Positions 12,190 to 48,177 of a DNA stretch of 64,000 nucleotides are shown piece by piece. This DNA is from a virus (lineage: Duplodnaviria; Caudoviricetes). The stretch spans positions 160,001-224,000 of the IMG/VR virus record IMGVR_UViG_3300037067_004891, one strand, 5' to 3'. The notes below the pieces were generated by a model, which saw only the letters and a list, made by a program, of their open reading frames with translations, made no database searches and was not told where the DNA came from. Each line of letters begins with the position of its first letter. The first letter of the stretch is position 1. Both the position numbers and the translations under genes were made by a program.

Positions 12190-15100
12190 GTGAAGAATCT
12201 CAGATTTTACAATAAAGAGGGTTATCCTTACAACTTCCAATATAATGACGATACTGAAAAATGGGAAGGTAAAATGTTATTCGACCCAAATAGTAGCGAT
12301 TTATATAAAACAATAGGTATCTATTTATTTGAACATGTAGAACCGATCTCGTTTGCTGATTATTTCAATTTCAACAAATTTGAAATTTACAATGATAGTG
12401 GAATAATATTCAAGGGATCGACAAAACAAGGTTTAAATATCGAAAATATTCAAAAAACTAATAATTCATCAGCATTTAAAACAAAATGGATAAAGGGTAA
12501 AGGATTTCATCAGATATTTCCTGAAGGAACGGTTGTTAGATTCGTGTTAAGTGGCGCAAATTATACAGATTTCGCAGATGACTTATATTTTAATGTATTG
12601 GAAACCCGAAAAAATGAAATATTAGTTCAAACACAAACCACGAATGATATATTTGCAGCATTCACATACACATCTGGAAAAATATACAGTTGCGATGTTA
12701 TAAAATACCCAGATTATAATCAAGGATATGGTGCAATGTTTAGTTCAAAAATATATGTAGGTAAACAACTATCCGTAGTAAATTCAGATAAAAATTCAGG
12801 TGTAGTTGAAGTTAAAGATTATGAGGTCTTAAAAAGAAATATATATGATTTCGAATTATCAGGAACTACTAATGATAAATTAAATCTTGAAATTACATTA
12901 TTAACAGATAGAATTTTATTACACAATGGTGTTGTGAATATTATTGGAAACAAATTCATATTTAGTCAACCATTTGGTGATACTTTTAATATTGGACAAA
13001 ATATAATATTTGAAGATTATAATGGAAACCAATTATTAAACGGATATCAATATACAATCACATCAATATCGGATAACATCTCGGTCAAAACTGGAGTAAA
13101 TTTAGAATTCTTTGAATATTATGATGAAAACACAACGGACGAAACTGAATATTATATTAGAACAACATCAACACTCAATGTTCAGTTAGTAGCAAATGAT
13201 ATAATATACTTCACTGGTGCATCTTTAAATATCCAAAAGGATTTCAAAGTTTTATACACTTATCAAGAAGATGGTTATACATATATTCAACTCGAACAAC
13301 ATGTTCATGAAGAAAATGTGACAAACATGTCAATTGTAAAACGATTAAGATTTTATGAATATTTTACTTTAGATGCTTCTGGAATACCACTCACTCAAAC
13401 AATTGATGGCAATTGTTTTTTAACAACAAATATTTTAAACTATAAACAAGACATTATACCCGCAGCATCAGGTTATACTACTTATCATGAAACAATAAAT
13501 GCTTTTGTAAAAAATTTTAATAACGATTTAAATAAACTTGGTATCAATTCATATCTGTTAAATGATAAACTAATAATTGAAGGATTGTATGATTATACAT
13601 ATGCGCCATATTTCACAGTTACTCTGTATTTAGAAAATGATGGAGTAAATGTTGGAACAATTCCAAATCAAAATACATATTCATCTGCATCTGTTTCAGA
13701 TATACATTATATATTCACCGAAGAAAAAATATACAATGAAAAAATTTATTTATATGAAACAAATAAATTATCAAGTAATTATAACGAAGAAATAATATTT
13801 GATTTATATAATGATGTTTTAGATTACGGTTTTAATTTAACTTTAAACGATGTAGAATATTTCATTAATTACCAAGATAGTACTGGAACAACAAACAACA
13901 CACAAGAAACCATTAAAGACTTTGTTGAAAAATACTACACAGCATTGTATAACAAAGGAATAGAAATTTTTACTGGTACGACAGTGGATAACAAATTATA
14001 TATTCAAACATTATATCCAGATATTCAAATATTGAGTTTAAAAATTAAAGTAAACACATATTCTTCTTACAATATATTATATCAATCAGAAAACGAATTC
14101 AAAACAAATGGCATTATCATATCTGGTAATCAACTGGATATATCTATGATGGGTTCAACGAATTTATTTGATATTGGATTGTCAACTGGTATGATATTTT
14201 CAGTATCGGGTAGTTCATATAATGAAAACGAAAAAGAATATAACATATTAGGTTTAACTACTAATACAATACAATTGTCATATCAGGGTGCATTTTTTGA
14301 AGAAAATAATATTCTTTTAGATATTGATTCAAGAGAATATATTCGTAAGCCAAGACTATCATACAATAAAGATATTTATTATAGATTTTCGTGGATAACA
14401 AGCGATGAACATCTTATTGATGAATCTATATTTTTCTATGATATCTCTGGTGAACAACTTCAACCACCAAAAGATAATTCTGGAAACTATATTGAAAAAT
14501 TAAGATATATAGGACAAAAACCAATATGGGATTCAAAACAACAAAATATCATTAGATTAAATAAAGAACCAAATAATAAATTGGAATATATTTCAAACCC
14601 GAAATATCAACAAACAATATTTTCAGAATTAAACTTTTTATTACCTCAACTGGATTCTGATGATGATTTCAACTATCTACCAAAACCATTTGAAATTTTT
14701 ATTGGTTATAATACGTTAAACGAAGGTGTTAATTATAACATGATGAAAATAGAAAAGGTTGAAAGTGTTGTTTTTAGTGGCATAACGGGTGTTTCAGATA
14801 ATTTTTTTATTTTTAATACAGATGGAATAATTGAATTTAAATCAAACACTTTTGATAATTTTATAAATTTGGGATTTGAAATTGGACAACCAATACAAAT
14901 TAAAATGACCGATACTAACCCATATGATCAGTCATTATTCAAAAATTATGAAACATATACTATTATAGATATTTTAAAAAATAAAATAGTAGTTGATATT
15001 TCTAATATTAATGATTTCGTATATTTCAATTCGTCTGGTAAAACATTCAATTACTCAATTAATGTTCAACCAAAAGAAATTGGTCGTTTTTCTATTTATG

Positions 15101-16179
15101 GTGAAACTGAAATCGAAGATGAACGCTTTGATATAAATTTAAAAAACTTAGGTATCCGAATACACAAAGAAGAAGAAATGATTTTCAAAGATTCCGACTT
15201 AGAAGAAAATGGTATAGATTATTCTTTGTTAAATAGAAAACGAAAAGAAATGTTAATAATGTATCCACATATTTATAATTATATTGGTGCATATAAATCT
15301 CTTATGGGAGCTATTAATTTCTTTGGGTATAATGATTTGGAACTGTATGAATATTATAAAAATGTCAACTCCAGTTCTCCTTTTTATAAAAAATATATGA
15401 GAATATACATTCCTGATATATTTGATACCACAGTAGATGGATGGAATGAAGTCGATTTTATTAAAAATAAAGGAAATAGAAATAATTATGTCAAAAGTAA
15501 TTTATTCAATTTGACTTACAAAATAACTGATGAAGATGGTTACAATTTGAATTTATATTCATTAAAAGAAGTTCAAATAAAACTTCAAAAATTGAAATTA
15601 TGGTTAAGAGAAAACGTCATTCCACTTTCAACAAACATTATTGATATAACAGGCTCGGCTAAAATACCAAATACTAATTATTTAGTGCATGATACATCAA
15701 ACCAGATAAAAAAATTAAAAACTGAAAAAACAGGAATTGTTATAAATTTTAATCATATTACTACACTTAATTTCAGTACAAATTATTTATTTTCAATTTT
15801 TTTCTATACAGTTAGTGGGTTTATTCCAGATCATTTTGAATTGATAATAAAAACTTTCACCAAAAATGCAGAAGGAAAATTAATACCCGTTCAATATTTT
15901 AAAGTATTTAAAACAGACCTCGAACCATTTAATTTTAATATAGATAAAGATGTAGACCCATATATTTACATCGAAACATCATATTATGGTGATTATGGTG
16001 TTGGTTATCGTAATACTGAATTGTTTAATTTTGATGAACCAAAAAACTATTATTTAATCAATAATAATTTTAGATATAAATATTATCCAAGAATAAGTAC
16101 CAATGAAGGATACTATATTATAGATGATGATGGCAGTCTTTGGATTGTAGAAGAATATAGCAATGTTATAAATAGTTAA
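12190..16179 (+). CDS. large putative virion/baseplate structural protein (1329 aa)
   Basis: Long ORF, beta-rich composition, AATATATA motif upstream. Confidence 0.55.
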   Translation: MKNLRFYNKEGYPYNFQYNDDTEKWEGKMLFDPNSSDLYKTIGIYLFEHVEPISFADYFNFNKFEIYNDSGIIFKGSTKQGLNIENIQKTNNSSAFKTKWIKGKGFHQIFPEGTVVRFVLSGANYTDFADDLYFNVLETRKNEILVQTQTTNDIFAAFTYTSGKIYSCDVIKYPDYNQGYGAMFSSKIYVGKQLSVVNSDKNSGVVEVKDYEVLKRNIYDFELSGTTNDKLNLEITLLTDRILLHNGVVNIIGNKFIFSQPFGDTFNIGQNIIFEDYNGNQLLNGYQYTITSISDNISVKTGVNLEFFEYYDENTTDETEYYIRTTSTLNVQLVANDIIYFTGASLNIQKDFKVLYTYQEDGYTYIQLEQHVHEENVTNMSIVKRLRFYEYFTLDASGIPLTQTIDGNCFLTTNILNYKQDIIPAASGYTTYHETINAFVKNFNNDLNKLGINSYLLNDKLIIEGLYDYTYAPYFTVTLYLENDGVNVGTIPNQNTYSSASVSDIHYIFTEEKIYNEKIYLYETNKLSSNYNEEIIFDLYNDVLDYGFNLTLNDVEYFINYQDSTGTTNNTQETIKDFVEKYYTALYNKGIEIFTGTTVDNKLYIQTLYPDIQILSLKIKVNTYSSYNILYQSENEFKTNGIIISGNQLDISMMGSTNLFDIGLSTGMIFSVSGSSYNENEKEYNILGLTTNTIQLSYQGAFFEENNILLDIDSREYIRKPRLSYNKDIYYRFSWITSDEHLIDESIFFYDISGEQLQPPKDNSGNYIEKLRYIGQKPIWDSKQQNIIRLNKEPNNKLEYISNPKYQQTIFSELNFLLPQLDSDDDFNYLPKPFEIFIGYNTLNEGVNYNMMKIEKVESVVFSGITGVSDNFFIFNTDGIIEFKSNTFDNFINLGFEIGQPIQIKMTDTNPYDQSLFKNYETYTIIDILKNKIVVDISNINDFVYFNSSGKTFNYSINVQPKEIGRFSIYGETEIEDERFDINLKNLGIRIHKEEEMIFKDSDLEENGIDYSLLNRKRKEMLIMYPHIYNYIGAYKSLMGAINFFGYNDLELYEYYKNVNSSSPFYKKYMRIYIPDIFDTTVDGWNEVDFIKNKGNRNNYVKSNLFNLTYKITDEDGYNLNLYSLKEVQIKLQKLKLWLRENVIPLSTNIIDITGSAKIPNTNYLVHDTSNQIKKLKTEKTGIVINFNHITTLNFSTNYLFSIFFYTVSGFIPDHFELIIKTFTKNAEGKLIPVQYFKVFKTDLEPFNFNIDKDVDPYIYIETSYYGDYGVGYRNTELFNFDEPKNYYLINNNFRYKYYPRISTNEGYYIIDDDGSLWIVEEYSNVINS

Positions 16180-20597: not shown

Positions 20598-20984
20598 ATG
20601 GAAGAAGACATATTAGATATAATAAAAAAGATACAAGAAGCTCGTAATCCCAAATATTTTTTATGGCAAATAATTAAAGATACTGAGTGGTTTACTGCTA
20701 AGTATAATTCTAATATTTTAGTTGGAAAGAAAAATGATGTTGTTTATTTTAATTACGATAAGAAAAATCACACTTTATATTATGATTACAACAAAATATA
20801 CACAGTTTTAGAAACGAAATATCATCTTAACAGATTGAATGCTAATGAAATAATTGGTGGTATGGTGAGTGAACACACAAAAATGAGGGTTGACACAACC
20901 AAGGTGCAGGAGTACAGATATATAAGAATGGTGAGTGAACACACAAAAATGAGGGTTGACACAACTCATTTATATCAATTTTAA
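20598..20984 (+). CDS. array-fused cassette protein, copy 2
   Basis: Paralog of 2776-3111 and 48102-48443; reads through two repeats (VSEHTKMRVDTT twice). Confidence 0.8.
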   Translation: MEEDILDIIKKIQEARNPKYFLWQIIKDTEWFTAKYNSNILVGKKNDVVYFNYDKKNHTLYYDYNKIYTVLETKYHLNRLNANEIIGGMVSEHTKMRVDTTKVQEYRYIRMVSEHTKMRVDTTHLYQF

Positions 20985-21351
20985 TATCTTCCTTAGGTGA
21001 GTGAACACACAAAAATGAGGGTTGACACAACTATTCGCATTGCAATCGCCTTCTTCATGTTCGGTGAGTGAACACACAAAAATGAGGGTTGACACAACCA
21101 AGTATAAACCCGTTGTGCTTCATCATTAGGTGAGTGAACACACAAAAATGAGGGTTGACACAACTGGTGTATTGCGTTTCTCTATTATGTGGGCAGGTGA
21201 GTGAATATACAAAAATGAGGGTTGACACAACATTAGAGAGTTTATAAATGCGAAAAAAGGGGGTGAGTGAATATACAAAAATGAGGGTTGACACAACTGT
21301 TCTATGGTGGTTCAACAGACAACACATTGGTGAGTGAACACACAAAATGAG
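20864..21351 (+). CRISPR. CRISPR-like array 2 (repeat A): 7 full repeats plus 1 truncated
   Basis: Repeats start at 20864, 20930, 20996, 21063, 21129, 21196, 21262 (last two with GAATATAC variant); truncated copy at 21329; spacers 30,30,31,30,31,30,31 nt, all unique. Confidence 0.9.
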
Positions 21352-22051: not shown

Positions 22052-22345
22052 ATGGATAATATTTCAGGAAATGTGAATTACACAGAGATGACAGATGAGT
22101 TTCAGAAAAGAAAAAATAAAGAAACTCCAAAAGAAAAAACAAGTTCAATCCAAAATTATAACAAAAAAGAGTTCACAAAAGTTTTAAAAGAATTAACAAC
22201 AAATTTTTATAAGGTATTAGAAAATAGTGAGAAACTTTATGAAATGAGAAGTTTAAAAGAATTAAACGATTTCAAAGTAACTGTCAAATCAGTCGAAAGA
22301 GATTTAAATAAAGTTCACGATATAAACGAAAAAAGTGGGGAATGA
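22052..22345 (+). CDS. hypothetical protein
   Basis: ORF track. Confidence 0.55.
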   Translation: MDNISGNVNYTEMTDEFQKRKNKETPKEKTSSIQNYNKKEFTKVLKELTTNFYKVLENSEKLYEMRSLKELNDFKVTVKSVERDLNKVHDINEKSGE

Positions 22346-22364
22346 CCATGACCCCCACTTTTTT
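22329..22364. terminator. bidirectional intrinsic terminator
   Basis: AAAAAAGTGGGG...CCCCACTTTTTT between convergent genes. Confidence 0.7.
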
Positions 22365-23368: not shown

Positions 23369-25520
23369 ATTTAACTTTTATTGTTCGTTTAAATGAACCA
23401 GAAAGTTTTAAAATTACACACTCAGAAACAGTAGCATTAAATCCAACACCTGATAATTGTTTTTCAGTAGGTTCAATCATGGTAGTGTTACCTAATACTT
23501 CAAGAACCTTACGATGTTTAGCCAGTTCAGGTATCAAGTTTTCATTATGAAAACTACGAATATTCACAGGGCATTTACAACCGTCAAGCATGATCAAATA
23601 ATGTTTATTACCTACATTATTATCACCCCAATGATTAGGACTTAGACACACCAAATTAACTTTATGAAATTCATTTGTTTGTAAACCATAAAGTTCTTTA
23701 GATGATGCAATTTCAGGTAGTAAATGCATAATGCTAAATTCCCCATTATTCAAAGTAACTTCAGCTACTTGTACATTGCCTGATACGGGTTTATTATATT
23801 CATAAGAATAATTTTCGCCCCCGAATTCAATTTCAGCTTTGAATCCTTTAGAACCCCTGCTGGCATATTGGTTAATCCACAATTTGTAAACACCATCTTT
23901 CATTCTTTTGATATCAGTCCAAGCGATATTCTCAACAATATTTTTATTACTAAAATTATTAGGTTGAGTTATATCAATATCCAACTGTCCAGACATAGAA
24001 GTTCTATGATTTCCTCTGTCTTTTCTGTAATCAGACGAATAATAAATATGAGTACCATTTGGTTCTTGTGCATGAGCATCTAAATCGGAATTATCTGTTG
24101 GGTCATTTTCTGCCCACATAATAGAGAAACGCAATACACCATCAACCTTACCACCTTTAGCTTCAACAGCATCTTTAATCATCGATTTACCAGCCAAGTT
24201 ACCATTGAATGTCCAACTGTAATTGTTATTCCATTTGAATATAGGTTTGCTTTCTTTATTGTTAGCTGTTGTTAAAGAAACAAGATTACCTTCATATTTG
24301 TTAGACAAATACGCTTCAACTGAAGTACACGAAGGAAGAACATCCGACATAAACTTTTCAATAGTTACTTCTTCCACATTATCAAATTCACTTCCTTTGT
24401 GACGAGTAGAAGTCGATTTAACATTGTCGAATATAGAAACAGTTTTTAATTTACCGTCTCCAACATTGATGTGTTTAATTTCCGAAACTTTAATATCATC
24501 AATTGTGGCAAATCTTCTATTAAAAGATTCTTCATAACCATTTTCTTCAACGAATTTTTTAGCTTCTTCAATTTGTTTCTTGGTAATCGGAGCAACAGTT
24601 TTCATATAATTAACTGGGTCAACTCTTTTATTCCAAGACTGACATGCTTTGTTTAAATCTTCCCCCTCTGCCAATTCGGTGCATAAAGTACCAATTAATT
24701 CATTTTTGAACTTAGCAAATGGAAGTTTATAACTGTTAACCCAACACCAATTATCCCTTTTATCCTCGGATAATTTATCATATTGTTCCTTTAATGGTAT
24801 GATTTGATGTAATTTATACAAATGAGTTTGTCCATCCAGCAGTGAACCTTGGTTAATAAGGTCTTTCACCAGATTGAGTGTATCAAGCGGTATCACTTGC
24901 ATAGCCTTTTGAAAAACATTTTTGGCATCTCGATAATTAGCCATTATTTTTTCAACTGAATCATCACCCATATCTACAAATACCCTTGGTAGATTAAGAT
25001 GTAAATGATTAAATGTTCTAATTTCTTCAGGTTTAACTATGAAAGAATCATCTGAATTTTTATACAATTCAGCTTCATCTTTTGTGTATTGCTTTACGTT
25101 TTTGTCAATACCCAATCTGAAAATTTCATTTGTTTTAGAACATTTCTCATAAGGTAAAGAATTTAGCTCGCTGAAAGTTTCAAAGAAAACACCCGAAACC
25201 GTAGCCGATTTTAGTTTAGAATCTACCACTTTAGCTACTGCACTGTATTCTTCATTTGCATCAACATCAAACATCGTAACAACATTGAGATTTTCATCAA
25301 TGGCAACGATATTACCATATCTACGAATAAAGTTATTACAGTGATTACAGTTATGTGAAGAACTGTCTGGACTTCTGAATATGGGATTGTGTTCTTTTGG
25401 AAAACTTTTAATATACAAATCCCACACTTCTTGACCAGTCAACGAACTACGAAATAACTTACCCGTTTCACACATCTTGTTGAATTGGGCTTGAATTAGT
25501 TTGTTAAACTCAATCATCAC
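23355..25520 (-). CDS. large phage protein (721 aa) of unknown function
   Basis: HNCNHC motif; C-terminal DLDAH / LDIDI region resembling YfaP/DUF2135-type domains. Confidence 0.6.
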   Translation of the reverse strand: MMIEFNKLIQAQFNKMCETGKLFRSSLTGQEVWDLYIKSFPKEHNPIFRSPDSSSHNCNHCNNFIRRYGNIVAIDENLNVVTMFDVDANEEYSAVAKVVDSKLKSATVSGVFFETFSELNSLPYEKCSKTNEIFRLGIDKNVKQYTKDEAELYKNSDDSFIVKPEEIRTFNHLHLNLPRVFVDMGDDSVEKIMANYRDAKNVFQKAMQVIPLDTLNLVKDLINQGSLLDGQTHLYKLHQIIPLKEQYDKLSEDKRDNWCWVNSYKLPFAKFKNELIGTLCTELAEGEDLNKACQSWNKRVDPVNYMKTVAPITKKQIEEAKKFVEENGYEESFNRRFATIDDIKVSEIKHINVGDGKLKTVSIFDNVKSTSTRHKGSEFDNVEEVTIEKFMSDVLPSCTSVEAYLSNKYEGNLVSLTTANNKESKPIFKWNNNYSWTFNGNLAGKSMIKDAVEAKGGKVDGVLRFSIMWAENDPTDNSDLDAHAQEPNGTHIYYSSDYRKDRGNHRTSMSGQLDIDITQPNNFSNKNIVENIAWTDIKRMKDGVYKLWINQYASRGSKGFKAEIEFGGENYSYEYNKPVSGNVQVAEVTLNNGEFSIMHLLPEIASSKELYGLQTNEFHKVNLVCLSPNHWGDNNVGNKHYLIMLDGCKCPVNIRSFHNENLIPELAKHRKVLEVLGNTTMIEPTEKQLSGVGFNATVSECVILKLSGSFKRTIKVKFGNG

Positions 25521-28591: not shown

Positions 28592-30000
28592 GGTTAACCA
28601 ACTGCTAACAAAAATATAATAAAATCTACAAATATTTAATAAAATTAAAACAAAACGTTTTAATTTTAATATAAATTTAATGTTAAAAGCGATAAAAATA
28701 AGGTTGTACCCTAATAAAAATCAAGAAGTTTATATTAATAAACTTCTTGGTTGTTACCGCTTTATGTATAATAAATGCTTAGAGTTAAAGAAAAATAAAT
28801 ATACTGAAGAAAATATTTCTTTAGGTTTAAAAGATTTAGGAAAACATTTTCATCAAAATTTAACTAAAAATAATGATTATATTTTTCTTAAAGAACACAA
28901 TACCAAGGTTTTAAAACAAGCAATTATTAATCTTTTAGATTCTTACAAAAACTTTTTCATAAATGGAACTGGTTTTCCTAAATTTAAATCAAAGAAAGAC
29001 AACAAACATTCTTGTAGGTTTCCAGCAGAAAGTGTAAGTAAAAAGAATAATTATTTATCTGGGAAATTAACTTTAACCAGTCAAATTAAAGATATAAAAT
29101 TCAAATGTTCAGATAATTATAAAAATTATTTAGATAAATATAAAAATAATATTCGGTCAGCTACTCTTACTAAAACTGCTTCTGGAAATTATTTTTTAAG
29201 CGTTTTAGTTGATGGAAATATTGAAAAACAACTACCCAAACCTATAAATGAAATTGTTGGGATAGATTTGGGAATAAAGGACTTCGTGATTAGCTCCGAA
29301 GGAGCTGTTTACGAAAACCTTAAAACCCAAAGAGCCAACGAGAAGCAGCTCATTAAATTGCAAAAACAACTGTCTAAAAAAGTTATAGGAAGTAGAAACA
29401 GAAACAAAGCAAGAAAAAAATTAGCTAAAAAATATGATAAAATAAATAACAAGAAAGAAAAATATTTACATTTTGTTGCAAACCAATTACTTAATGATAA
29501 TCAAATTATAGTGTTGGAAGATTTAAATGTAAAAGGTATGTTGAAAAATCACTGTCTATCAAAATCAATACAAGAACTGTCACTAAACAGGTTTAAAAAT
29601 ATTTTAAGTTATAAATCTGCCTGGTATGATAGAAATTTAATTGAAGTTGATCGGTGGTTTCCTTCATCAAAGCTCTGTAACTGTTGTGGTTATAAAAAGA
29701 AAGACTTGAAATTAAATGATAGAGTGTGGGTCTGTCCCAACTGTGGGGTCGTTCACGACCGTGATTTTAACGCTGCTATAAATATAAGAGAAGAAGGGAA
29801 AAGAATTTTTAACAGTAAAATAACTGACTTTCAATCAAAAAAAGATTTTCAAGTAGGCAACCGTTTTGCCGAATTTACGCTTGTGGACTCCCCAACTATG
29901 GATGACCCAATCAGAAATGGTTTGCTAAAAAGTAGTGAGAGTGTGAAACAAGAAGAAATATTTTTAACAAATTTGTAATTTTTGTTAGATTTTTTTGAAC
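28592..30000 (+). mobile_element. tnpB-only insertion element, IS607-like ends
   Basis: GGTTAA at both junctions; subterminal inverted repeat CTAACAAAAAT (28605-28615) / ATTTTTGTTAG (29978-29988); no tnpA. Confidence 0.8.
28680..29978 (+). CDS. tnpB: TnpB RNA-guided nuclease
   Basis: KIRLYPN HTH, GIDLG, LEDL, CNCC/CPNC zinc finger, HDRDFNAAINI. Confidence 0.95.
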   Translation: MLKAIKIRLYPNKNQEVYINKLLGCYRFMYNKCLELKKNKYTEENISLGLKDLGKHFHQNLTKNNDYIFLKEHNTKVLKQAIINLLDSYKNFFINGTGFPKFKSKKDNKHSCRFPAESVSKKNNYLSGKLTLTSQIKDIKFKCSDNYKNYLDKYKNNIRSATLTKTASGNYFLSVLVDGNIEKQLPKPINEIVGIDLGIKDFVISSEGAVYENLKTQRANEKQLIKLQKQLSKKVIGSRNRNKARKKLAKKYDKINNKKEKYLHFVANQLLNDNQIIVLEDLNVKGMLKNHCLSKSIQELSLNRFKNILSYKSAWYDRNLIEVDRWFPSSKLCNCCGYKKKDLKLNDRVWVCPNCGVVHDRDFNAAINIREEGKRIFNSKITDFQSKKDFQVGNRFAEFTLVDSPTMDDPIRNGLLKSSESVKQEEIFLTNL

Positions 30001-30599
30001 GGTTAAATCTATTAATTTCAATAATGAAAAACATTCTCAATTGATAAAACAATCTGTATCCAAAAAAGGATACCTAAGAGTTAGAATCAATAAAAATAAT
30101 AATAGATACACTCTGAATGTTCATCGGATGGTAGCTACTGCATTTATACCTAATTCTGATAATAAGCCTCAGATCAATCATTCTGATGGGAACAAGAAGA
30201 ACAACTACTTCACCAATCTCGAATGGTCAACCAATCAGGAAAACCAAGATCATGCAAGAGGAATGGGATTGATACAACCACCACCAAGAGGATATGATAA
30301 CACTTGTTCATTGGAAGTATTACAGTATGATAAATATACATTGGATTTAATTAAAAGATGGGGCAGTATTGGAGAAGCATCAAGAGATTTAAAAATACCG
30401 ACTACAAATATATCAAAATCGAGTAGTCGCAAACGAATGATAGCTGGTGGTTTTATTTGGAGATATTCAGATGATGAAATAAAATTTCCAAAATGCCCAT
30501 ATTGCAATAAAGAAAATAAAAATTTAAATTATTCTAATACTCAACATAGAAAAGTAATATGTTCAAATTGTGGTTATAATTTTTTGTTAATTTTATAAT

Positions 30600-30744
30600 A
30601 TGGATGATACTTTTGATATAATAAAAAAGATACAGGAAGCCAGAAGCCCGAAATATTTTTTATGGCAAATAATTAAAGATATTGAGTGGGTTGATTCTAA
30701 GTATATTTCTAAATATTTATACAAAAAATGAGGGTTGACACAAC
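30600..30744 (+). pseudogene. internally deleted 4th copy of array-fused cassette
   Basis: MDDTFDIIKKIQEARSPKYFLWQIIKDIEW (43 aa, stop 30729-30731) joined to the 3' part of repeat A (30721-30744). Confidence 0.8.
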
Positions 30745-31009
30745 TATTGGATTTTATTCTCCATACTTATTATAAACCAGAAACTGGTGAATTAATCGTA
30801 CCAGAAAAATGGAAGAATTTTTCGGTAATAGACCCAAACAAATTACCTGCTGCCACACCAAGAGAACTTCTAAAAAAGAAACTGGAACAATTTCTTACAA
30901 GAGATGAATGGAATCAATTGGATATTTATTAAAAAATATAATTAAATAATATTAAATTAATATTTGTCTAATTCAAAAATTATGTTTTACTTTACACAAA
31001 AATAATGAT

Positions 31010-32281
31010 ATGATAGTAACATCATCAATGAAAATAAAAATAATACCAGTGGATGTAATATCCAAAAAGTGGATATTTGATATTTTTAATGTATCTTATA
31101 AGATTCAGAATCGGGCTTATGATATATCACGGATGTTACATCAATATCCAGTAATAATGTTACCTGTTACACCACCCAAATCACAAGTATATAATTTAAC
31201 TACTCAGGAATTTCCTAAAGTTATTACTACTTATCTGAGAGATTGGGTATATCAAGCAGAAAACAATTATAAAAGTGATGTTAAAGCTGGTTTATTATCA
31301 GGTAAAAGAAGTCCAAGACTGTATAAGAAATATGGTGCTACACGTTTTCAATTTTTGAAAAAATCTAATCCAAAATTAATAAAAGAAAATGGTGATTTTT
31401 TTATTCTTATTAACAGTAGAACAAATATCAAATTTAAAATACTATTCGACAAAAAAACAGGACATCTTAAAACTATGTTAAATAGATTTTTGGATTTAGA
31501 AAATAAAAAATACAATCTTAACTCAACTTTTTATATTAAAAAAACCAATAGAAACGAACTGATGTTAATCATATCCTATGAACAAGACATCCAAGGTTAT
31601 GTTGGCATAAATAATAGAGTGATGGGTATTGATATGGGTGTGAGAAGATTTATTTCTTTAAGAATAAATGACATACCAAGATATCAGAAGTCTATTCATA
31701 GTGAGAAATTAGTTCAACAGAAGTATGGTATTGCTATGAAAAATAAAAGGGTACAGGAATCTTCTGTATTAGCTAAATCAGGTCATGGTAGAACAAGAAA
31801 AATGCAGGTTTATAATAAAGTAAAAGATTCTGAAACATCATTTACTAATAATGTACTGGATAAATTATCAAAAGAAGTAATTGAATCTGCTGCAAAACGA
31901 AAAGTTCAACAGATAAACATGGAACGTCTTGATAAGAATTCTATGAAAGAACAAAATTCTTATCTTGGAAGATATTGGAGTGTTATGACTTTGATGAATC
32001 TAATTGAACAAAAAGCAACTAAACGTGGTATCATTGTTAAATATGTCGACCCTTATCATACAAGTCAGACTTGTTCATGCTGTGGTATGATTGGTGAAAG
32101 AAATGGTGCTGATTTTAAATGTATTAATGCTAAATGTGAAGAATTTAATAAAGATAAAGTAATTGATAGCGATTATAATGCTGCAATGAATATAGCTACA
32201 TCTGTTGATTATTTAGATGATGCAAGCAAAGGAAAATATTACTTAAATAAAACCAAAAAGGTTTTAGAAGAAGTTCTTTGA
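31010..32281 (+). CDS. cas12f: compact type V CRISPR effector, Cas12f-like (423 aa)
   Basis: RuvC motifs GIDMG, MERL, DSDYNAAMNIA; GHGR motif; TSQTCSCCG zinc finger; adjacent array. Confidence 0.8.
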   Translation: MIVTSSMKIKIIPVDVISKKWIFDIFNVSYKIQNRAYDISRMLHQYPVIMLPVTPPKSQVYNLTTQEFPKVITTYLRDWVYQAENNYKSDVKAGLLSGKRSPRLYKKYGATRFQFLKKSNPKLIKENGDFFILINSRTNIKFKILFDKKTGHLKTMLNRFLDLENKKYNLNSTFYIKKTNRNELMLIISYEQDIQGYVGINNRVMGIDMGVRRFISLRINDIPRYQKSIHSEKLVQQKYGIAMKNKRVQESSVLAKSGHGRTRKMQVYNKVKDSETSFTNNVLDKLSKEVIESAAKRKVQQINMERLDKNSMKEQNSYLGRYWSVMTLMNLIEQKATKRGIIVKYVDPYHTSQTCSCCGMIGERNGADFKCINAKCEEFNKDKVIDSDYNAAMNIATSVDYLDDASKGKYYLNKTKKVLEEVL

Positions 32282-32498
32282 AATAATATTGAGGTTTATT
32301 GGGTTGGACGTAAGTCCAGTAAATGAACTGCTATATACACTCACTAAAATGTATGGTGAGCGCAGGGATTAAAACCAGATAGTGAGGTCAGGAAATCAAA
32401 AATTGGATTTTTTAGAGTTAAATTTAAAAGATTACATATTTTTTTTCCACTAATACACTCACTAAATACCTTTATTTCAGTGGTTTAAAATGGGATAA
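32282..32498 (+). ncRNA. putative tracrRNA/scaffold RNA
   Basis: TTGGAC-GTAA-GTCCAG GNRA hairpin (32304-32319), CTCACT/GGTGAG stem, partial anti-repeat at 32466-32488. Confidence 0.55.
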
Positions 32499-32864
32499 GA
32501 TGGGTTAAACCACAAATTGAGAGGTATGCCCAGCTATACATCGCTTAACTTGGTAGTAAGAGCAAGATGGGTTAAACCACAAATTGAGAGGTATGCCCAG
32601 CTAAGGGACGAATACGATAAATCCACCTGTGATGGGTTAAACCACAAATTGAGAGGTATGCCCAGCTACCTTTTTTACATGCGTCAATTAAAGAAAGATG
32701 GGTTAAACCACAAATTGAGAGGTATGCCCAGCTTATAATTCATCATCATCATTTTTTAATTAGATGGGTTAAACCACAAATTGAGAGGTATGCCCAGCAG
32801 CCACAGTGAGGAATTTGTTTTTAACTATGATGGGTTAAACCACAAATTGAGAGGTATGCCCAGC
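32499..32864 (+). CRISPR. CRISPR array (repeat B): 6 repeats, 5 spacers
   Basis: GATGGGTTAAACCACAAATTGAGAGGTATGCCCAGC at 32499, 32566, 32631, 32697, 32763, 32829; spacers 31,29,30,30,30 nt; orientation inferred from the cas gene. Confidence 0.95.
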
Positions 32865-36590: not shown

Positions 36591-39500
36591 TTATGAACAC
36601 CTTGAACTTCCGCACGACATACATGTCATACACCCTTCTTTAAATTCAACATGTTCACTACCACATTCTTGACACACACCTTTTATTTTTTCACCATCTT
36701 TAATATATCGTTTAATAACTCTTTCAACACCAGCTTTCCAAGTGTTTAAATGAGCATCATTTAGGTTTAAAGAATTTATTAATTCATAAACATATATTAA
36801 AGGCATCGCATGTCGTAATAAACCACTCACCAATTTTGCATAGTTCCAAAATTCAGGGTTGAACGAATGATTTAATTCTAAATATGTTTTCTTTTCACCA
36901 TCGACATCAACATATTCCATATCATAACGAGAAATTTTCTTACCATCTTCACCATCTATTTTATTTTTAACAACCTCACATTCTTTAATAGTAGGTGAAA
37001 GAGAAGACAACCCGTTAACAAGACGACCAGTAAAGAGTTCGTATGGTCTACCATCTAATAAACCAACAACAGCAATCCACTTTTCAGAATCATTTTGGAA
37101 ACGGATAATATCAGCTTTTAAACGTTTAGGTCTTTTTGGTGCGTTGTGGTCTTTAAAAGCTTCAAGTTTTTCCTTTTCTTTTTGTTCTTTTTTAGAAACT
37201 AAAACACCTGACCGAGAACCGTCACGATAAACAGTCATCCCTTTACAACCACATCTCCAACCTGTTTCATATACTTTAGCCACAATTTCTTCAGTAACAT
37301 TATTTGGTAAATTAACGGTGACAGATATGGAATGGTCAACATGTTTTTGTAATCTTCCCTGCATTTCTACCTTTTCAAGCCAATCAACATCGTTAGCAGT
37401 CGCCTTAAAATAAGGTGATTCTTTAACGATTTCGTCCAATTGTTCTCTCTTCATATTTTTAACAGCGTCTATATCATAATTATTCACTCCAAGCCACATT
37501 TCAAATTTATGATGAAATACTGGGTACTCTTGCCATGATACACCTTCTTCGTCAATAAAGTCTACCCGAACATTTTTTTCTTGTGGATTAATTTTACGTC
37601 TACGCATATAAACTGGAAGAAAACATGGTTCAACACCCGATGTTGTTTGTGTCATTAAACTCACACTTCCAGTTGGAGCTATGGTTAATAAAGAAATATT
37701 CCTACGACCATATTTTACCATTTCATCATATAACAACAGGTCTTGTTCTTTTATCCTTAATATAAACGGGTTATTTATTTCACGTATAGAATCATATATT
37801 GGAAATGAACCTCTTTCATGTGCCATTATAACAGAAGAACGATATGCTTCTAATTTTAAAGTTTTTTGTATTTTTTCAGAAAATATAGTAGCTTCTTTTG
37901 TACCATATGTAAAATTAAGAGCTGCTAACATATCACCAAGACCTGTAATACCAAGACCTGTCCTACGTCCCATCTCAGCTTTTTTCTTAATTTCAACCCA
38001 AAGATTTTTTTCATAAATTTTTATAAATTCATCTTCTGGGTCATTATCTATTTTATTTAATATTTGGTCTATTTTTTCAAGTTCTAAATCAACAATGTCA
38101 TCCATCAATCTTTCAGCAAGAATTATATCTTTTTTAAATAAATCAAAATCAAAATATGCTTCTTTAGTAAATGGATTTTTTACATATCCAAAAAGATTTA
38201 AAGCTAATAAGCGACAACTATCCGATTTACAAAGTGTTATTTCTCCACAATTTCTCCCCAACACACTTACAGTTAACTGTTTACCACTTTTAGTTTTTTC
38301 TTGAAAACCCCCAAAATAAAAATTATGAACATCATCCACAGTACCATTATATACATCTTCATAACCATCTAATTCAACAGATATTACTTTATGATTATAT
38401 AATTCAGCTTCTTCTTTTAATTCATTAAAAGTATTAAAACCATGTTTAGTTTTTAATCTAAATGGGATATTTTGTATCTTACATTCATTTTCCCACTCTT
38501 TTAATAATGGTGTTCGTTCTAATTGAAATTGAAGTTTAGAGAATATTTTTATTTGTTTTTGTTTATTTTCATCTGATTTAATTTTAAAAATATCATTAAT
38601 AGTTTTAGTTCTTATAATATTTGCATCAGTTGTTCTATTCACATAAAGATTAGAACATGTGTTACTACAAAATGAATTTTCTCTTTGTTTATGTTCTACC
38701 CAAAATGGTTCACCACATTCTTCACAAATTTTCTCAACATAAACTTTATGATTTTCAATTTTTGTATTATAACCATTACTTAACATATTTTTATATGTTC
38801 TAACAAGTCGGGGGTCGTTATTTATAAATTCAATATTTAATTCTAATGCAGCCCACTTAGCCATAGATGTTATACCAGAATTAATTTCTTCCAATCTAAA
38901 TTTAGAAAAATACTTAGGTAATTTGTTTTCATTAGCATATTTACCCCAATCATCATTAGAAAACCTTCTTCCTAAAATTTTAGTTAATCTTAACGCATGG
39001 TCTTTTATATCATCTGATAATATATTACTATATTTGGAATTAGAAGAACCTTTATGTGATGCGAAATTAAACTTCCACTCATTTGACATTTTATGATAAG
39101 GATTTTTTTCACCAATCATATCAGTTTTGTGAAATTCGTCATGTTCATATTTGGTCATCATTAATAAATTATTAATATTGTTATTTAAACTATTATAATC
39201 TTTATGATGAATAACATTACCAGAATCGATTTTAATATTGTTTAGTTGTTCATATAAAAATCTATGTTCAGATACAGTAGATTTAAATTTGCCATTATTA
39301 ATCCATATATAATCACTACTTTTTGAGTTAGAATTTGGAAATAATTCTTCAAATGATGCAAACCATTTTGTTAAAATATTTAAACTATCACCACTTACTA
39401 AGTTCTTAGCTTCTTTAATATTTCCGTCTTTTAAAATAAATTTATGATTACCAGTTACTCTAACTGAATGACCACCTTGAATGTTAATTTTATATATTGG

Positions 39501-42041
39501 TTTATTAAACCCAGTAATACGAGGGTTACGCATAGTTTTAATAACTAATTTACTATTTACTTCATCCATAGCATAAACTGGTATGTCATTACCTTCATCA
39601 GCTAATTGCTTAATTGACACATATTGTCTACCATCAGCTACTGCAACCAAAGTTTCACCAACAATGCACGGATTAGTTGAAACTGTTTCAAATCCTAAAT
39701 CTGCATAACAATCAGGAATAGATTCTCTTAAAATAGTGTCCCAATATAAAATTCCTGGTTCTGCACTATTTGAAATTGCAAAACCATTTGATAATATAAA
39801 AGTATGATTATCATTAACTGTTAAATCATATACATAGTTATGTTTTGATTTATCAATTATATTTTTTTCTTTTACTTCTTCATATATAATATCATTATTG
39901 TAAATTATATCATCAATTTCTATATTTTTACATTTTAATTTTTTAATTAACACACTTTTTGAAATTCTTCCTGAATAATGTCTAAGTTTATTTTGGAATT
40001 TTTTATTTATAGGTATAAAAGTAGACCCCTTTTCTGTAATTAGATTTTCATTTAATATATTTTGTTTACATTTTAATATAAATTTTATGTATGTGTGAAA
40101 TAAAATATTATGTTCCTTACAGATATATAGTCTGTAACTGTTTTGTATATTACATAACTTTCCCATTATTATTTTTTTACCCATTTTTTCTTTTAAATGA
40201 ATAGAAGAACGAATACCAAATAACATTAATAATTTTTGAATATTATTAATTAAATGTAAATTAGATTGTGAAACATCTATCACACCGCTATTTATTGAAC
40301 CGTCCCCACTAAAAAAACCAGATAACAACGATGATATTTTATTTTTAGTTAGAGAAAAAACCCAATTTGGTAACATTTTTTGTCCATCAATATAATCAAA
40401 TCCAATAGATTTCATTAAATTACCTAATAACGTACTATTTATAGTTATGCAACAATAATTTTTATTAATTTTATAACTCCAATTACAATGAAATTTGTCA
40501 GATATATATTTTAATATATATCTGTAATCTTCAATCTCATTTTTATTAATATGTAATAATACCGAGTTACTATGATATGAACCTTCTGCCAGCCATAAAC
40601 CTAAAAAATTAGAAAATATATTATCAATAAAAAAATCTTTATTTATTAGAATTTCAGTGTTGTCATTTATATTTGGTTTTATTCTAATATTATTTATTTG
40701 AACTACATCTTTTATTTTTAAATATTCAAATATTGGTAACATTTTATAATGAATATAATTACTTGATTTATATCCACCATTTTTATTCATACCAAGTAAA
40801 TGTTTAATTTGTCCATTATTTAAAACATTTTCGAAATCATCAAATATTATAGAACTACCATTATTAAAATAATTTAAATCAATTTCAACCATATCCACAC
40901 CATCGTCATCTAATTTTGTTTTATCTGACAATAATATATAATCACCAATATTTACTTCATTAATAGGTATAGATAATATTTTAAAATCTCTTATTACATA
41001 TACTATATGGTCTTCAGTTGTCGATAATTCTTTTCTCGTTTTAGTTTTTAATGTTATAATATTTTTATTATTCTCATATTTTTGAAAATCTGTTATTGGT
41101 TTTCTTTCTATTCTTAATGTATTTAAATTTAAACTTATTGCTTCATATTTTCTATGTTTATCATGATTTTCAACTAAATCACCTATTTTAATAGTTTTGT
41201 AAATATCGTTTTCATATATAGGAATTTCAGTATCATACGGTACACACTTCCAAGCGTTAAAAATTATTTTATTCCATAATTTTTTAGCATCAATTTCTTG
41301 CTTTACTAATGGAATATCACTTACTAATGGGAATTGTTGAGAATATGAGGTTTCGTTTAAAACTGATTTCATAAATTCATCATCAATTTTAACTGAAATA
41401 TTTGCACCCGTAACTTTACCCTGTTCAAGTTTAGCATCAATAAATTTTTCTACATCTGGGTGTTTAATGGGCATTGAAAGAAGAAGTGCGCCCCTTCGTC
41501 CATCCTGCGCTACTTCACGGGTAGTGTTAGAATATCTTTCCATGAATGGAACAATACCTGTTGAAGTTAATGCACTGTTTTTAACGGGTGAACCTGTTGG
41601 TCTTATAAATGATAGGTCAAAACCGACTCCTGCTCGTCTTTTTTGAAGTTGAGCTGTTTCTTGGTCAAGTTTAAATATACCACCGTATGAATCAGAATCG
41701 TTTTCATTACCTATAACGAAACAATTACTAATACTAACAATTTGAAAGTTGTTACCGATACCAGACATTGGACTACCCTGTGGTATTACTCTTTCAAAAT
41801 TTTTTAATGAATCAAATATGACTTCTTCTGATATAGGATTTGAATATTTATTTTCAATACGTGCTAACTCACCAGACAACCTTCTATGCATATCATCTGG
41901 TGATTTTTCATATAAATTACCAAATGAATCTTTTAAACAATATTTATTAATCCATACTTCGGCTGCTAATTCATCGCCTTTGAAATATTTTAATGTTTCT
42001 GACAATACTTCTTCTCTTGTATATTTTACTAATTCTGACAT
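36591..42041 (-). CDS. nrdJ: class II (B12-dependent) ribonucleotide reductase with two inteins
   Basis: SNCF, RRGA, TNP/CGE, GLGITG, TIAPTGS, KGMTVYRDGSR, C-terminal zinc ribbon; ~850 aa after splicing. Confidence 0.93.
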   Translation of the reverse strand: MSELVKYTREEVLSETLKYFKGDELAAEVWINKYCLKDSFGNLYEKSPDDMHRRLSGELARIENKYSNPISEEVIFDSLKNFERVIPQGSPMSGIGNNFQIVSISNCFVIGNENDSDSYGGIFKLDQETAQLQKRRAGVGFDLSFIRPTGSPVKNSALTSTGIVPFMERYSNTTREVAQDGRRGALLLSMPIKHPDVEKFIDAKLEQGKVTGANISVKIDDEFMKSVLNETSYSQQFPLVSDIPLVKQEIDAKKLWNKIIFNAWKCVPYDTEIPIYENDIYKTIKIGDLVENHDKHRKYEAISLNLNTLRIERKPITDFQKYENNKNIITLKTKTRKELSTTEDHIVYVIRDFKILSIPINEVNIGDYILLSDKTKLDDDGVDMVEIDLNYFNNGSSIIFDDFENVLNNGQIKHLLGMNKNGGYKSSNYIHYKMLPIFEYLKIKDVVQINNIRIKPNINDNTEILINKDFFIDNIFSNFLGLWLAEGSYHSNSVLLHINKNEIEDYRYILKYISDKFHCNWSYKINKNYCCITINSTLLGNLMKSIGFDYIDGQKMLPNWVFSLTKNKISSLLSGFFSGDGSINSGVIDVSQSNLHLINNIQKLLMLFGIRSSIHLKEKMGKKIIMGKLCNIQNSYRLYICKEHNILFHTYIKFILKCKQNILNENLITEKGSTFIPINKKFQNKLRHYSGRISKSVLIKKLKCKNIEIDDIIYNNDIIYEEVKEKNIIDKSKHNYVYDLTVNDNHTFILSNGFAISNSAEPGILYWDTILRESIPDCYADLGFETVSTNPCIVGETLVAVADGRQYVSIKQLADEGNDIPVYAMDEVNSKLVIKTMRNPRITGFNKPIYKINIQGGHSVRVTGNHKFILKDGNIKEAKNLVSGDSLNILTKWFASFEELFPNSNSKSSDYIWINNGKFKSTVSEHRFLYEQLNNIKIDSGNVIHHKDYNSLNNNINNLLMMTKYEHDEFHKTDMIGEKNPYHKMSNEWKFNFASHKGSSNSKYSNILSDDIKDHALRLTKILGRRFSNDDWGKYANENKLPKYFSKFRLEEINSGITSMAKWAALELNIEFINNDPRLVRTYKNMLSNGYNTKIENHKVYVEKICEECGEPFWVEHKQRENSFCSNTCSNLYVNRTTDANIIRTKTINDIFKIKSDENKQKQIKIFSKLQFQLERTPLLKEWENECKIQNIPFRLKTKHGFNTFNELKEEAELYNHKVISVELDGYEDVYNGTVDDVHNFYFGGFQEKTKSGKQLTVSVLGRNCGEITLCKSDSCRLLALNLFGYVKNPFTKEAYFDFDLFKKDIILAERLMDDIVDLELEKIDQILNKIDNDPEDEFIKIYEKNLWVEIKKKAEMGRRTGLGITGLGDMLAALNFTYGTKEATIFSEKIQKTLKLEAYRSSVIMAHERGSFPIYDSIREINNPFILRIKEQDLLLYDEMVKYGRRNISLLTIAPTGSVSLMTQTTSGVEPCFLPVYMRRRKINPQEKNVRVDFIDEEGVSWQEYPVFHHKFEMWLGVNNYDIDAVKNMKREQLDEIVKESPYFKATANDVDWLEKVEMQGRLQKHVDHSISVTVNLPNNVTEEIVAKVYETGWRCGCKGMTVYRDGSRSGVLVSKKEQKEKEKLEAFKDHNAPKRPKRLKADIIRFQNDSEKWIAVVGLLDGRPYELFTGRLVNGLSSLSPTIKECEVVKNKIDGEDGKKISRYDMEYVDVDGEKKTYLELNHSFNPEFWNYAKLVSGLLRHAMPLIYVYELINSLNLNDAHLNTWKAGVERVIKRYIKDGEKIKGVCQECGSEHVEFKEGCMTCMSCGSSRCS
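38250..39668 (-). mobile_element. intein 2 with HNH endonuclease (473 aa) at the catalytic Cys
   Basis: TNP/CIVGET ... VYNGTV...GRN/CGE; IHHKDYNSLNNNINNL. Confidence 0.88.
39768..41246 (-). mobile_element. intein 1 with LAGLIDADG endonuclease (493 aa)
   Basis: AWK/CVPYDT ... VYDLTV...AISN/SAEPG; LGLWLAEG and LSGFFSGDG motifs. Confidence 0.88.
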
Positions 42042-47741: not shown

Positions 47742-48177
47742 ATTGTGTCAACCCTCATTTTTGTGTGTTCACTCACCAAAGAATATATTGGTGAAAAAAT
47801 GATTTGTGGTTGTGTCAACCCTCATTTTTGTGTGTTCACTCACCTATCGAATATTTCAACCACATCGGTTACATAAGTTGTGTCAACCCTCATTTTTGTG
47901 TGTTCACTCACCTTTTCCTCGCCATAAGGAAAGCAGATAATTAGTTGTGTCAACCCTCATTTTTGTGTGTTCACTCACCCAAAAATAAAAAAGATAGTAA
48001 AGTGGCTGGGTTGTGTCAACCCTCATTTTTGTGTGTTCACTCACCGTACAAAGTATGCAAAACCGCCCCATCCTGTTGTGTCAACCCTCATTTTTGTGTG
48101 TTCACTCACCTGAGTTGGGTGTAGTATATATAGTCGGGTCAGTTGTGTCAACCCTCATTTTTGTGTGTTCACTCACC
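47742..48177 (-). CRISPR. CRISPR-like array 3 (repeat A): 7 repeats, 6 spacers
   Basis: Repeats start at 47742 (1 mismatch), 47809, 47877, 47944, 48010, 48075, 48142; spacers 31,32,31,30,29,31 nt. Confidence 0.9.

Follow-up and report, generated by a model that had tools for sequence, protein, structure and literature searches.

A huge-phage Cas12f cassette with a putative tracrRNA, a six-repeat CRISPR array and spacers matching a co-occurring phage

The DNA analysed here, hereafter the window, is a stretch of 64,000 nucleotides (nt) corresponding to positions 160001-224000 of IMGVR_UViG_3300037067_004891, a 421,673-bp virus record in IMG/VR. The record has a G+C content of 25.7% and a CheckV completeness of about 59%, and its genes include those for ribonucleotide reductase (RNR), an NAD-dependent ligase and a tail fibre. 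On the forward strand, the window carries a compact CRISPR locus with three parts: a cas12f gene (31010-32281) encoding a protein of 423 amino acids (aa), termed P0001; a 217-nt non-coding region (32282-32498), putatively specifying a trans-activating CRISPR RNA (tracrRNA); and an array of six 36-nt repeats and five spacers (32499-32864). An AT-rich segment upstream of the start codon (30952-31009, forward strand) forms the 5' edge of the cassette and is the presumed promoter; a single weak sigma-70-like match was located at 30986-31014, not enriched over shuffled sequences, and a promoter/terminator consensus scan returned fewer sites than shuffles. An earlier sequence-only reading of this stretch had described a 423-aa RuvC protein with three acidic motifs and a zinc finger, followed by 217 nt of intergenic sequence and six identical 36-nt repeats with 29-31-nt spacers, and all of these numbers proved accurate. 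Positions below refer to the window unless otherwise indicated.

P0001 possesses the RuvC residues D208, E305 and D388, intact as the letters had suggested, and a CxxC...CxxxxC zinc ribbon with the ligands C355, C358, C371 and C376, likewise intact; all seven residues are invariant in an alignment of 42 family sequences. In CnCas12f1, the aligned counterparts of its catalytic residues are the GxDxG, INxE and DxNAAxNIA motifs. The Pfam Cas12f1-like_TNB zinc ribbon was recognized at 57 bits (cut-off 26), and the OrfB_IS605 RuvC region scored slightly under its cut-off. In sequence searches of the Protein Data Bank (PDB), the 13 top matches were all Cas12f (8HR5, 9NZO/9NZR, 9NZP, 8J12/8J1J/8J3R, 7WJU, 8DZJ, 9NZQ, 9I8Y and 7L48/7C7L), with E values of 7e-36 for CnCas12f1 (8HR5) and 2e-32 for Al3Cas12f (9NZO/9NZR); the 13 also included RhCas12f (9NZP), AsCas12f, SpCas12f1 and Un1Cas12f1, and no solved TnpB was found among the matches at E<=1. 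These PDB entries represent CnCas12f1, Al3Cas12f, RhCas12f, OsCas12f, AsCas12f1 and SpCas12f1, all of them active nucleases that use a tracrRNA (PMC13186708). An AlphaFold model built from the 42-sequence alignment reached a mean predicted local distance difference test (pLDDT) score of 86, and the 15 top Foldseek matches of this model in the PDB were Cas12f chains throughout. Full-length template modelling (TM) scores for one protomer (chain A) were 0.71-0.76, with 0.72-0.76 for AsCas12f and CnCas12f1, compared with 0.51-0.58 for the ISFba1 and ISDra2 TnpBs, which came next in the list.

Close relatives of P0001 are few in a large protein index, namely one at 93% identity on a 678-kb contig, one at 39% on a 233-kb contig, and others at no more than 35%. 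The first belongs to a homologous locus, L002, in the huge phage G001 (a contig of ~675-678 kb), and the second to locus L004, which was also found in a second sample as L005. Both L002 and L004 display the layout seen in the window: a gene, a non-coding stretch, and 30-nt spacers between 36-nt repeats. Searching metagenome and genome collections yielded 120 additional loci related to P0001; a simple array finder placed arrays beside many of them, and their repeats often end in ..TTTGAAAGGTA.AT.CAAC, resembling those of the window. GenBank phages provided no close DNA match and only distant, TnpB-like protein matches. Both cassette variants (window type and L002 type) are present on contigs from public sequencing runs of groundwater and landfill metagenomes belonging to three studies, contigs that end within the array. 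Comparison of L004 with L005 (7415-8044) revealed ten repeats in the former and seven in the latter; the additional units are gene-distal, and the flanks are identical. This length difference was considered as evidence of spacer acquisition and set aside, because gene-distal units between identical flanks fit deletion.

Phylogenetic placement was obtained from a FastTree analysis of 110 proteins, with five TnpBs from the same phage genome as outgroup. The tree was made quickly and has long branches; it is used for coarse placement only, a placement on which the sequence and fold searches agree. P0001 and the two other huge-phage proteins form a single clade (support 100) on a long branch, nested within a 55-member clade (support 93) that also contains loci from Alistipes, Rikenellaceae, Bacteroides and Clostridium. 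An adjoining array was detected in 28 of the 55 members, many of the others lying on truncated contigs; in a 35-member clade next to this array-bearing group, arrays were found at none of the loci. The phylogeny that the sequence-only reading had proposed as a check therefore groups P0001 with array-linked Cas12f, not with transposon TnpBs. By sequence, predicted fold and tree, we assign P0001 to Cas12f (type V-F) rather than to transposon TnpB.

The array consists of six identical copies of GATGGGTTAAACCACAAATTGAGAGGTATGCCCAGC, starting at 32499, 32566, 32631, 32697, 32763 and 32829 and separated by spacers of 31, 29, 30, 30 and 30 nt. This repeat, designated R1, has no further copies in the 421,673-bp record, and its tail motif AAUUGAGAGGUAU..CAGC is like that of the repeats accompanying relatives at Alistipes, Bacteroides and metagenome loci. 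The 217-nt region between gene and array is identical to its L002 counterpart at 201 of 217 positions, nine of the 16 differences falling within the final 26 nt, and the R1 and L002 repeats differ at many positions. It contains an internal 14-nt duplication. Among its predicted stems are two that recur at all three loci: a GNRA hairpin and a second hairpin, long and AT-rich, with GUGAGG/CACUCAC as its closing helix. An Rfam search of the region at E<=1 returned no family and one chance match to a small nucleolar RNA.

Towards the 3' end of this region lies a predicted anti-repeat, ATACCTTTATTTCAGTGGTTTAA (32466-32488, forward strand), for which RNAduplex gives pairing to positions 22-29 and 7-15 of the repeat. 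The pairing register is shared by the window, L002 and the distant L004, and at each of these three loci the cognate repeat is the most stable partner of the anti-repeat. Between the window and L002, compensatory changes were observed at pair 12 (C-G to U-A) and, in a hand alignment, at pair 18 (A-U to U-A), together with three wobble-compatible changes. A further contact may involve the repeat tail next to the spacer, which reads GCCCAG in the window, ACCCAA in L002 and ATACAA in L004. Read directly from the sequences, a hexamer complementary to this tail is located near the start of the region, being TTGGGT in the window (32299-32304, forward strand) and in L002, and TTGTAT, within a hairpin loop, in L004. 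The guide RNA of Un1Cas12f1 contains a UUGCAU:AUGCAA contact, which the repeat-tail hexamers of the three loci mirror. Cofolding selected a different partner, GCAGGG at 32362-32367, rather than TTGGGT, which is accordingly listed as a candidate. We regard the 217-nt region as a putative tracrRNA, the 3' end of which would be an anti-repeat co-varying with the repeat.

Two of the five spacers have matches in a second viral contig, IMGVR_UViG_3300037067_012589 (G002; 38.6 kb, 33% G+C, rated 48% complete), so that the spacer search suggested by the sequence-only reading did identify targets behind a T-rich 5' flank. Spacer 1 (32535-32565, forward strand) matches G002 at 22326-22356 with 30 of 31 positions identical and a 5' flank of ATTG, and spacer 2 (32602-32630, forward strand) matches at 14617-14645 over all 29 positions with a 5' flank of ATTA. 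These are the two spacers closest to the tracrRNA region. Their protospacers are 7.7 kb apart and lie in different genes, one of which is weakly major-tail-protein-like, and the DNA shared between G002 and the present phage does not extend beyond 57 nt. Read in the guide sense, the two flanks combine to ATTR, although two protospacers are too few for a logo of the protospacer-adjacent motif (PAM). The ATTR flanks are consistent with the guide orientation that gene and repeat family imply, and also with the T-rich PAM of type V systems; the PAM of AsCas12f, for comparison, is a T-rich 5' NTTR. Spacers 3 and 5 had no exact match in IMG/VR, spacer 4 was left out of that search as low-complexity, and spacers of this array matched neither the phage's own genome nor the ~675-kb phage G001. 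The matches fit targeting of one phage by another, G002 being the co-occurring one.

DNA similarity between the window and G001 is limited to positions 30952-32532, where nucleotide identity is 94%. Over the 6 kb on either side, G001 showed no similarity to the window by DNA or translated search. On this sequence comparison, the effector-tracrRNA-array unit is apparently transferable as a cassette between unrelated huge-phage genomes.

The locus is best explained, in our judgement with a probability of roughly 0.8, as a self-contained type V-F (Cas12f) interference cassette that is borne by a huge phage and aimed at a rival phage. From the observed features, the family placement, the repeat/anti-repeat covariation and the spacer matches with their flanks, we infer how transcription, RNA processing, guide loading, dimerisation and cleavage would proceed and what the biological role may be. 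The 423-aa nuclease would be made from 31010-32281, and the downstream 217 nt would be transcribed as a tracrRNA. Its anti-repeat (32466-32488) would pair with the 36-nt repeats of a precursor CRISPR RNA (pre-crRNA) from the array, and the upstream element of the tracrRNA would probably pair with the repeat tail. On the model of Cas12f complexes with known structures, P0001 may bind this dual RNA as a dimer. Double-stranded DNA would then be recognized through a 5' T-rich PAM (ATTR/TTR) beside a match to the guide of about 30 nt and cut by the single RuvC site. Guides of this kind would be directed at a co-occurring tailed phage, implying competition between phages within the same host. New spacers would require adaptation proteins acting in trans, supplied either by the host or by an unassembled part of the genome. 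The sequence-only reading had likewise proposed an active nuclease directed against competing elements or the host; the targeting half of that proposal is supported by two spacers matching another phage, and nuclease activity and guide loading are retained here as inference.

Several results weigh against this interpretation. P0001 fails the curated NCBIfam CRISPR_Cas12f2 model (92 bits, cut-off 450), and the sole NCBIfam model it passes is the generic guided_TnpB subfamily (116, cut-off 100). Because only this generic model passes, the subtype was assigned by nearest relatives, without a curated model; on these profile scores, the failure would count against subtype f2, not against Cas12f overall. 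The ratio of nonsynonymous to synonymous substitution rates (dN/dS) between the P0001 gene and its 93% identical homologue is 0.47, which represents merely moderate constraint, and the differences cluster in the zinc-ribbon (TNB) region. The pairing energies of tracrRNA and repeat (RNAduplex) lie within the range of random genome windows, and because they are no better than random, the RNA model is based on position and on covariation among three loci. Three of the five spacers are unmatched, and the PAM derives from just two protospacers. Profile searches of the 421-kb record for Cas1 and Cas2, in which control genomes scored and cas4 was not among the profiles, gave no match. What the sequence-only reading said about missing cas1 and cas2 thus holds for this record, rated about 59% complete, and no further; the same limit applies to the lack of adaptation genes in general and of any second effector.

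Beyond the Cas12f-adjoining array, six or more arrays of a second, related repeat class, R2, are scattered over the genome, with the 36-nt repeat GGTGAGTGAACACACAAAAATGAGGGTTGACACAAC and variants of it and with spacers of 28-32 nt. Within the window, these comprise an array of seven GGTGAGTGAACACACAAAAATGAGGGTTGACACAAC repeats at 20864-21297 (forward strand) and arrays at 2679-2845 and 47809-48177 (both reverse strand); outside it, they lie at genome positions 59407-59506, 403883-404183 and 409682-410310. Each array starts within the 3' end of a multicopy gene of ~110-130 aa (for example 20598-20984), which would provide the leader of the R2 arrays. This small-gene family is restricted to a few huge phages, and about 13 copies are present in G003, a complete 640-kb phage with terminal repeats. 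A decayed copy, truncated to the first ~45 codons and continuing into the final 24 nt of R2, is found directly upstream of the Cas12f cassette (30600-30744, forward strand), where the sequencing depth is about ten-fold that of the neighbouring DNA, as expected for a multicopy element. No effector adjoining the R2 arrays was found. A 1329-aa open reading frame (ORF) is present at 12190-16179 on the forward strand; as a candidate large effector for the R2 arrays it was rejected, having no Pfam or PHROG match of any sort. In G003, locus L150 (943-2889) encodes a 475-aa TnpB-family protein (guided_TnpB, 164 bits) followed on the same strand by a six-repeat array, whose repeat GGTGTGGAAGATATTCAATTGAGTGGTGGCTGCAAC resembles R2.

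Three R2 spacers have perfect matches within the phage's own genome: 21165-21195 to 24111-24141 in the window, and, in genome coordinates, 162781-162809 to 256664-256692 and 404119-404147 to 338395-338423. Two of these three are the first spacer of their own array. In the guide sense, none of the three self-matches is preceded by a 5' TTR, and all three are followed by a 3' NAAAA, equivalent to 5'-TTTTN on the opposite strand. That 3' flank led us to consider the R2 arrays as type II-like, a candidate that was discarded because a Cas9-like gene was not seen and the repeats have a tail resembling those of Cas12f loci. One R2 array in the window has as its first spacer a sequence (48111-48141) that matches G002 at 31664-31694 with 30 of 31 positions identical. 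Together with spacers 1 and 2 of the Cas12f-adjoining array, this match implies that both array classes aim at one rival. Two further R2 spacers gave no match in an exact-match scan of IMG/VR.

Upstream of the cassette, the window encodes a 432-aa TnpB of the IS200/IS605 type (P0002, 28680-29978; NF038281, 353 bits), the best natural PDB match of which is ISDra2 TnpB (E 8e-54), only an AI-designed nuclease entry ranking higher. The separation of P0001 from this neighbour, already asserted from sequence alone, is confirmed by their 22% identity over a local alignment of 225 columns with 34% gaps and by their placement in separate clades. An HNH endonuclease of 185 aa accompanies the TnpB just upstream of the cassette, within 28680-30598. 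Seven full-length TnpB-like ORFs were counted in the 421-kb record, all of them outside the P0001 clade. P0001 itself scores 27 bits against IS607_TnpB (cut-off 350), has no match to IS200_TnpB and contains no HTH_OrfB domain. The cassette has no TnpA and the record no second copy of P0001; insertion sequence (IS) ends were not the object of a direct search.

These surroundings bear on how the cassette is maintained. It might be chiefly a selfish, mobile element, kept and spread by a TnpB-like nuclease, with the array incidental or read by a host effector. Such an account would suit the confinement of similarity between two otherwise unrelated huge-phage contexts to 30952-32532 with unrelated flanks. 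It would also suit a neighbourhood that includes an HNH endonuclease besides the IS200/IS605 TnpB, as well as the remains of an array cassette, in a genome with seven TnpB-like ORFs. We nevertheless consider it very improbable: TnpA is missing and only one copy exists in the record, P0001 falls outside the TnpB clades, the guides would come from a multi-spacer array with a co-varying anti-repeat instead of a single right-end-derived guide, and what the spacers match is a foreign phage rather than an unoccupied insertion site. The possibility that the Cas12f binds without cutting, as a regulatory or decaying protein, also appears improbable. It is favoured by the dN/dS of 0.47, the changes being concentrated in the TNB region, and by the existence of catalytically dead, exapted Cas12f homologues, a dCas12f (PDB 9N9C) being among the matches of P0001; a 'dCas14' has been proposed in another huge phage (PMC7162821). 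It is opposed by the intact and, across 42 relatives, invariant D-E-D triad and four zinc ligands, by the fact that the closest relatives of P0001 are active nucleases, and by targets that are genes of another phage, not regulatory regions of the host or of the phage itself.

A different question is how far the reach of the cassette extends. P0001 and its tracrRNA could act as a hub that also loads the CRISPR RNAs (crRNAs) of the six or more R2 arrays, the R1 array contributing only a minor share of the guides. R2 belongs to the repeat family of R1, with a tail ending in ..AAAUGAGGGUUGACACAAC; the R2 spacer at 48111-48141 has the same target phage as spacers 1 and 2 of the R1 array; cofold gains are alike for tracrRNA with R2 (-11.2 kcal/mol) and with R1 (-10.6 kcal/mol); the decayed small-gene/R2 unit adjoins the cassette; and the record yielded neither another array-linked effector nor a second tracrRNA-like region, the latter searched for by blastn and nhmmer. 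Against this, the distal anti-repeat helix suits R2 poorly (5/9 pairs by hand), cofolding lacks specificity in that the non-cognate repeat R4 still scores -9.3, and a 5' TTR flank is present at none of five R2 protospacers. Moreover, G003 combines about 13 small-gene copies and R2-like arrays with no P0001 orthologue and has its own 475-aa TnpB-like protein with an array, and the ~41% of the genome that is missing could contain the true R2 partner. On this balance, we hold a shared hub to be possible but doubtful. Carried further, a single Cas12f and tracrRNA would serve both the R1 and R2 classes in a distributed CRISPR network of mobile gene-array cassettes with adaptation in trans, a picture that we think unlikely. 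Under it, spacers appear to enter R2 arrays at the gene-proximal end, because three of four R2 spacers with a perfect or near-perfect match come first in their array, and self-derived R2 spacers would persist because their crRNA sense lacks a 5' TTR PAM.

The preferred interpretation, a self-contained interference cassette, can be compared with known systems. Relative to the solved type V-F1 proteins (CnCas12f1 8HR5, Al3Cas12f 9NZO/9NZR, RhCas12f 9NZP and AsCas12f 7WJU/8DZJ/8J12), P0001 is predicted to share the same fold and has the same RuvC and zinc-ribbon motifs. The likeness extends to protein size (415-508 aa in type V-F1) and to the order of gene, tracrRNA region and array, with repeats of about 36 nt ending in ..GAA(A/U)G.A...CAAC. 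In contrast to type V-F1, P0001 has only 20-24% identity in Foldseek structure-based alignments and the phage trio occupies a long separate branch; the locus is phage-borne, with no adaptation genes in the record; and the tracrRNA region is 217 nt long, with a 14-nt internal duplication and a long AT-rich hairpin. With the IS200/IS605 TnpBs (ISDra2 8EXA/8H1J and P0002), the cassette shares the RuvC and zinc-ribbon core and a guide scaffold directly 3' of the gene. It differs from TnpB with its omega RNA or right-end element RNA (reRNA) in that P0001 is without HTH_OrfB and belongs to another clade, and in that guides would derive from a multi-spacer array and a separate anti-repeat.

In huge phages, new type V-F subtypes and a near-universal lack of Cas1, Cas2 and Cas4 have been reported by Al-Shayeb et al. 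(2020, PMC7162821), who also described, for huge-phage type V-F, arrays that are compact (six repeats as the median) and spacers against other phages. The statement in the sequence-only reading that compact type V effectors without adaptation modules are known from huge phages agrees with that work. Like the type V-F/Cas14 systems described there, the present locus combines a compact effector that has kept its catalytic residues with a small array and phage-directed spacers. Compared by description only, it differs from them in the occurrence of the cassette in two unrelated backbones and together with dispersed arrays of a second repeat class. This kind of system has been known in huge phages since 2020, and the cassette in the window is a good new example, not a new system. 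What it adds is a guide RNA defined by covariation, a target phage with a provisional PAM, a transferable cassette and a link to dispersed arrays.

For phage biology, the locus offers a well-documented case of phage-versus-phage CRISPR targeting, with two adjacent spacers directed at one co-occurring phage. From a technological perspective, the phage trio of 420-423 aa forms a long Cas12f branch of its own towards the lower size limit of the family, and the candidate tracrRNA, crRNA and provisional TTR PAM make a trial as a genome editor direct. For evolutionary studies, a single genome holds classic TnpBs, a Cas12f cassette and sister-repeat arrays devoid of cas genes, and its relative G003 possesses an array-linked TnpB-like protein; such genomes should be useful for investigating how TnpB-type nucleases acquire arrays.

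Elsewhere in the window, the reverse strand at 36591-42041 encodes an RNR large subunit of 1816 aa that contains an HNH endonuclease segment in mid-protein (residues ~913-987), which suggests an intein or an inserted homing endonuclease.

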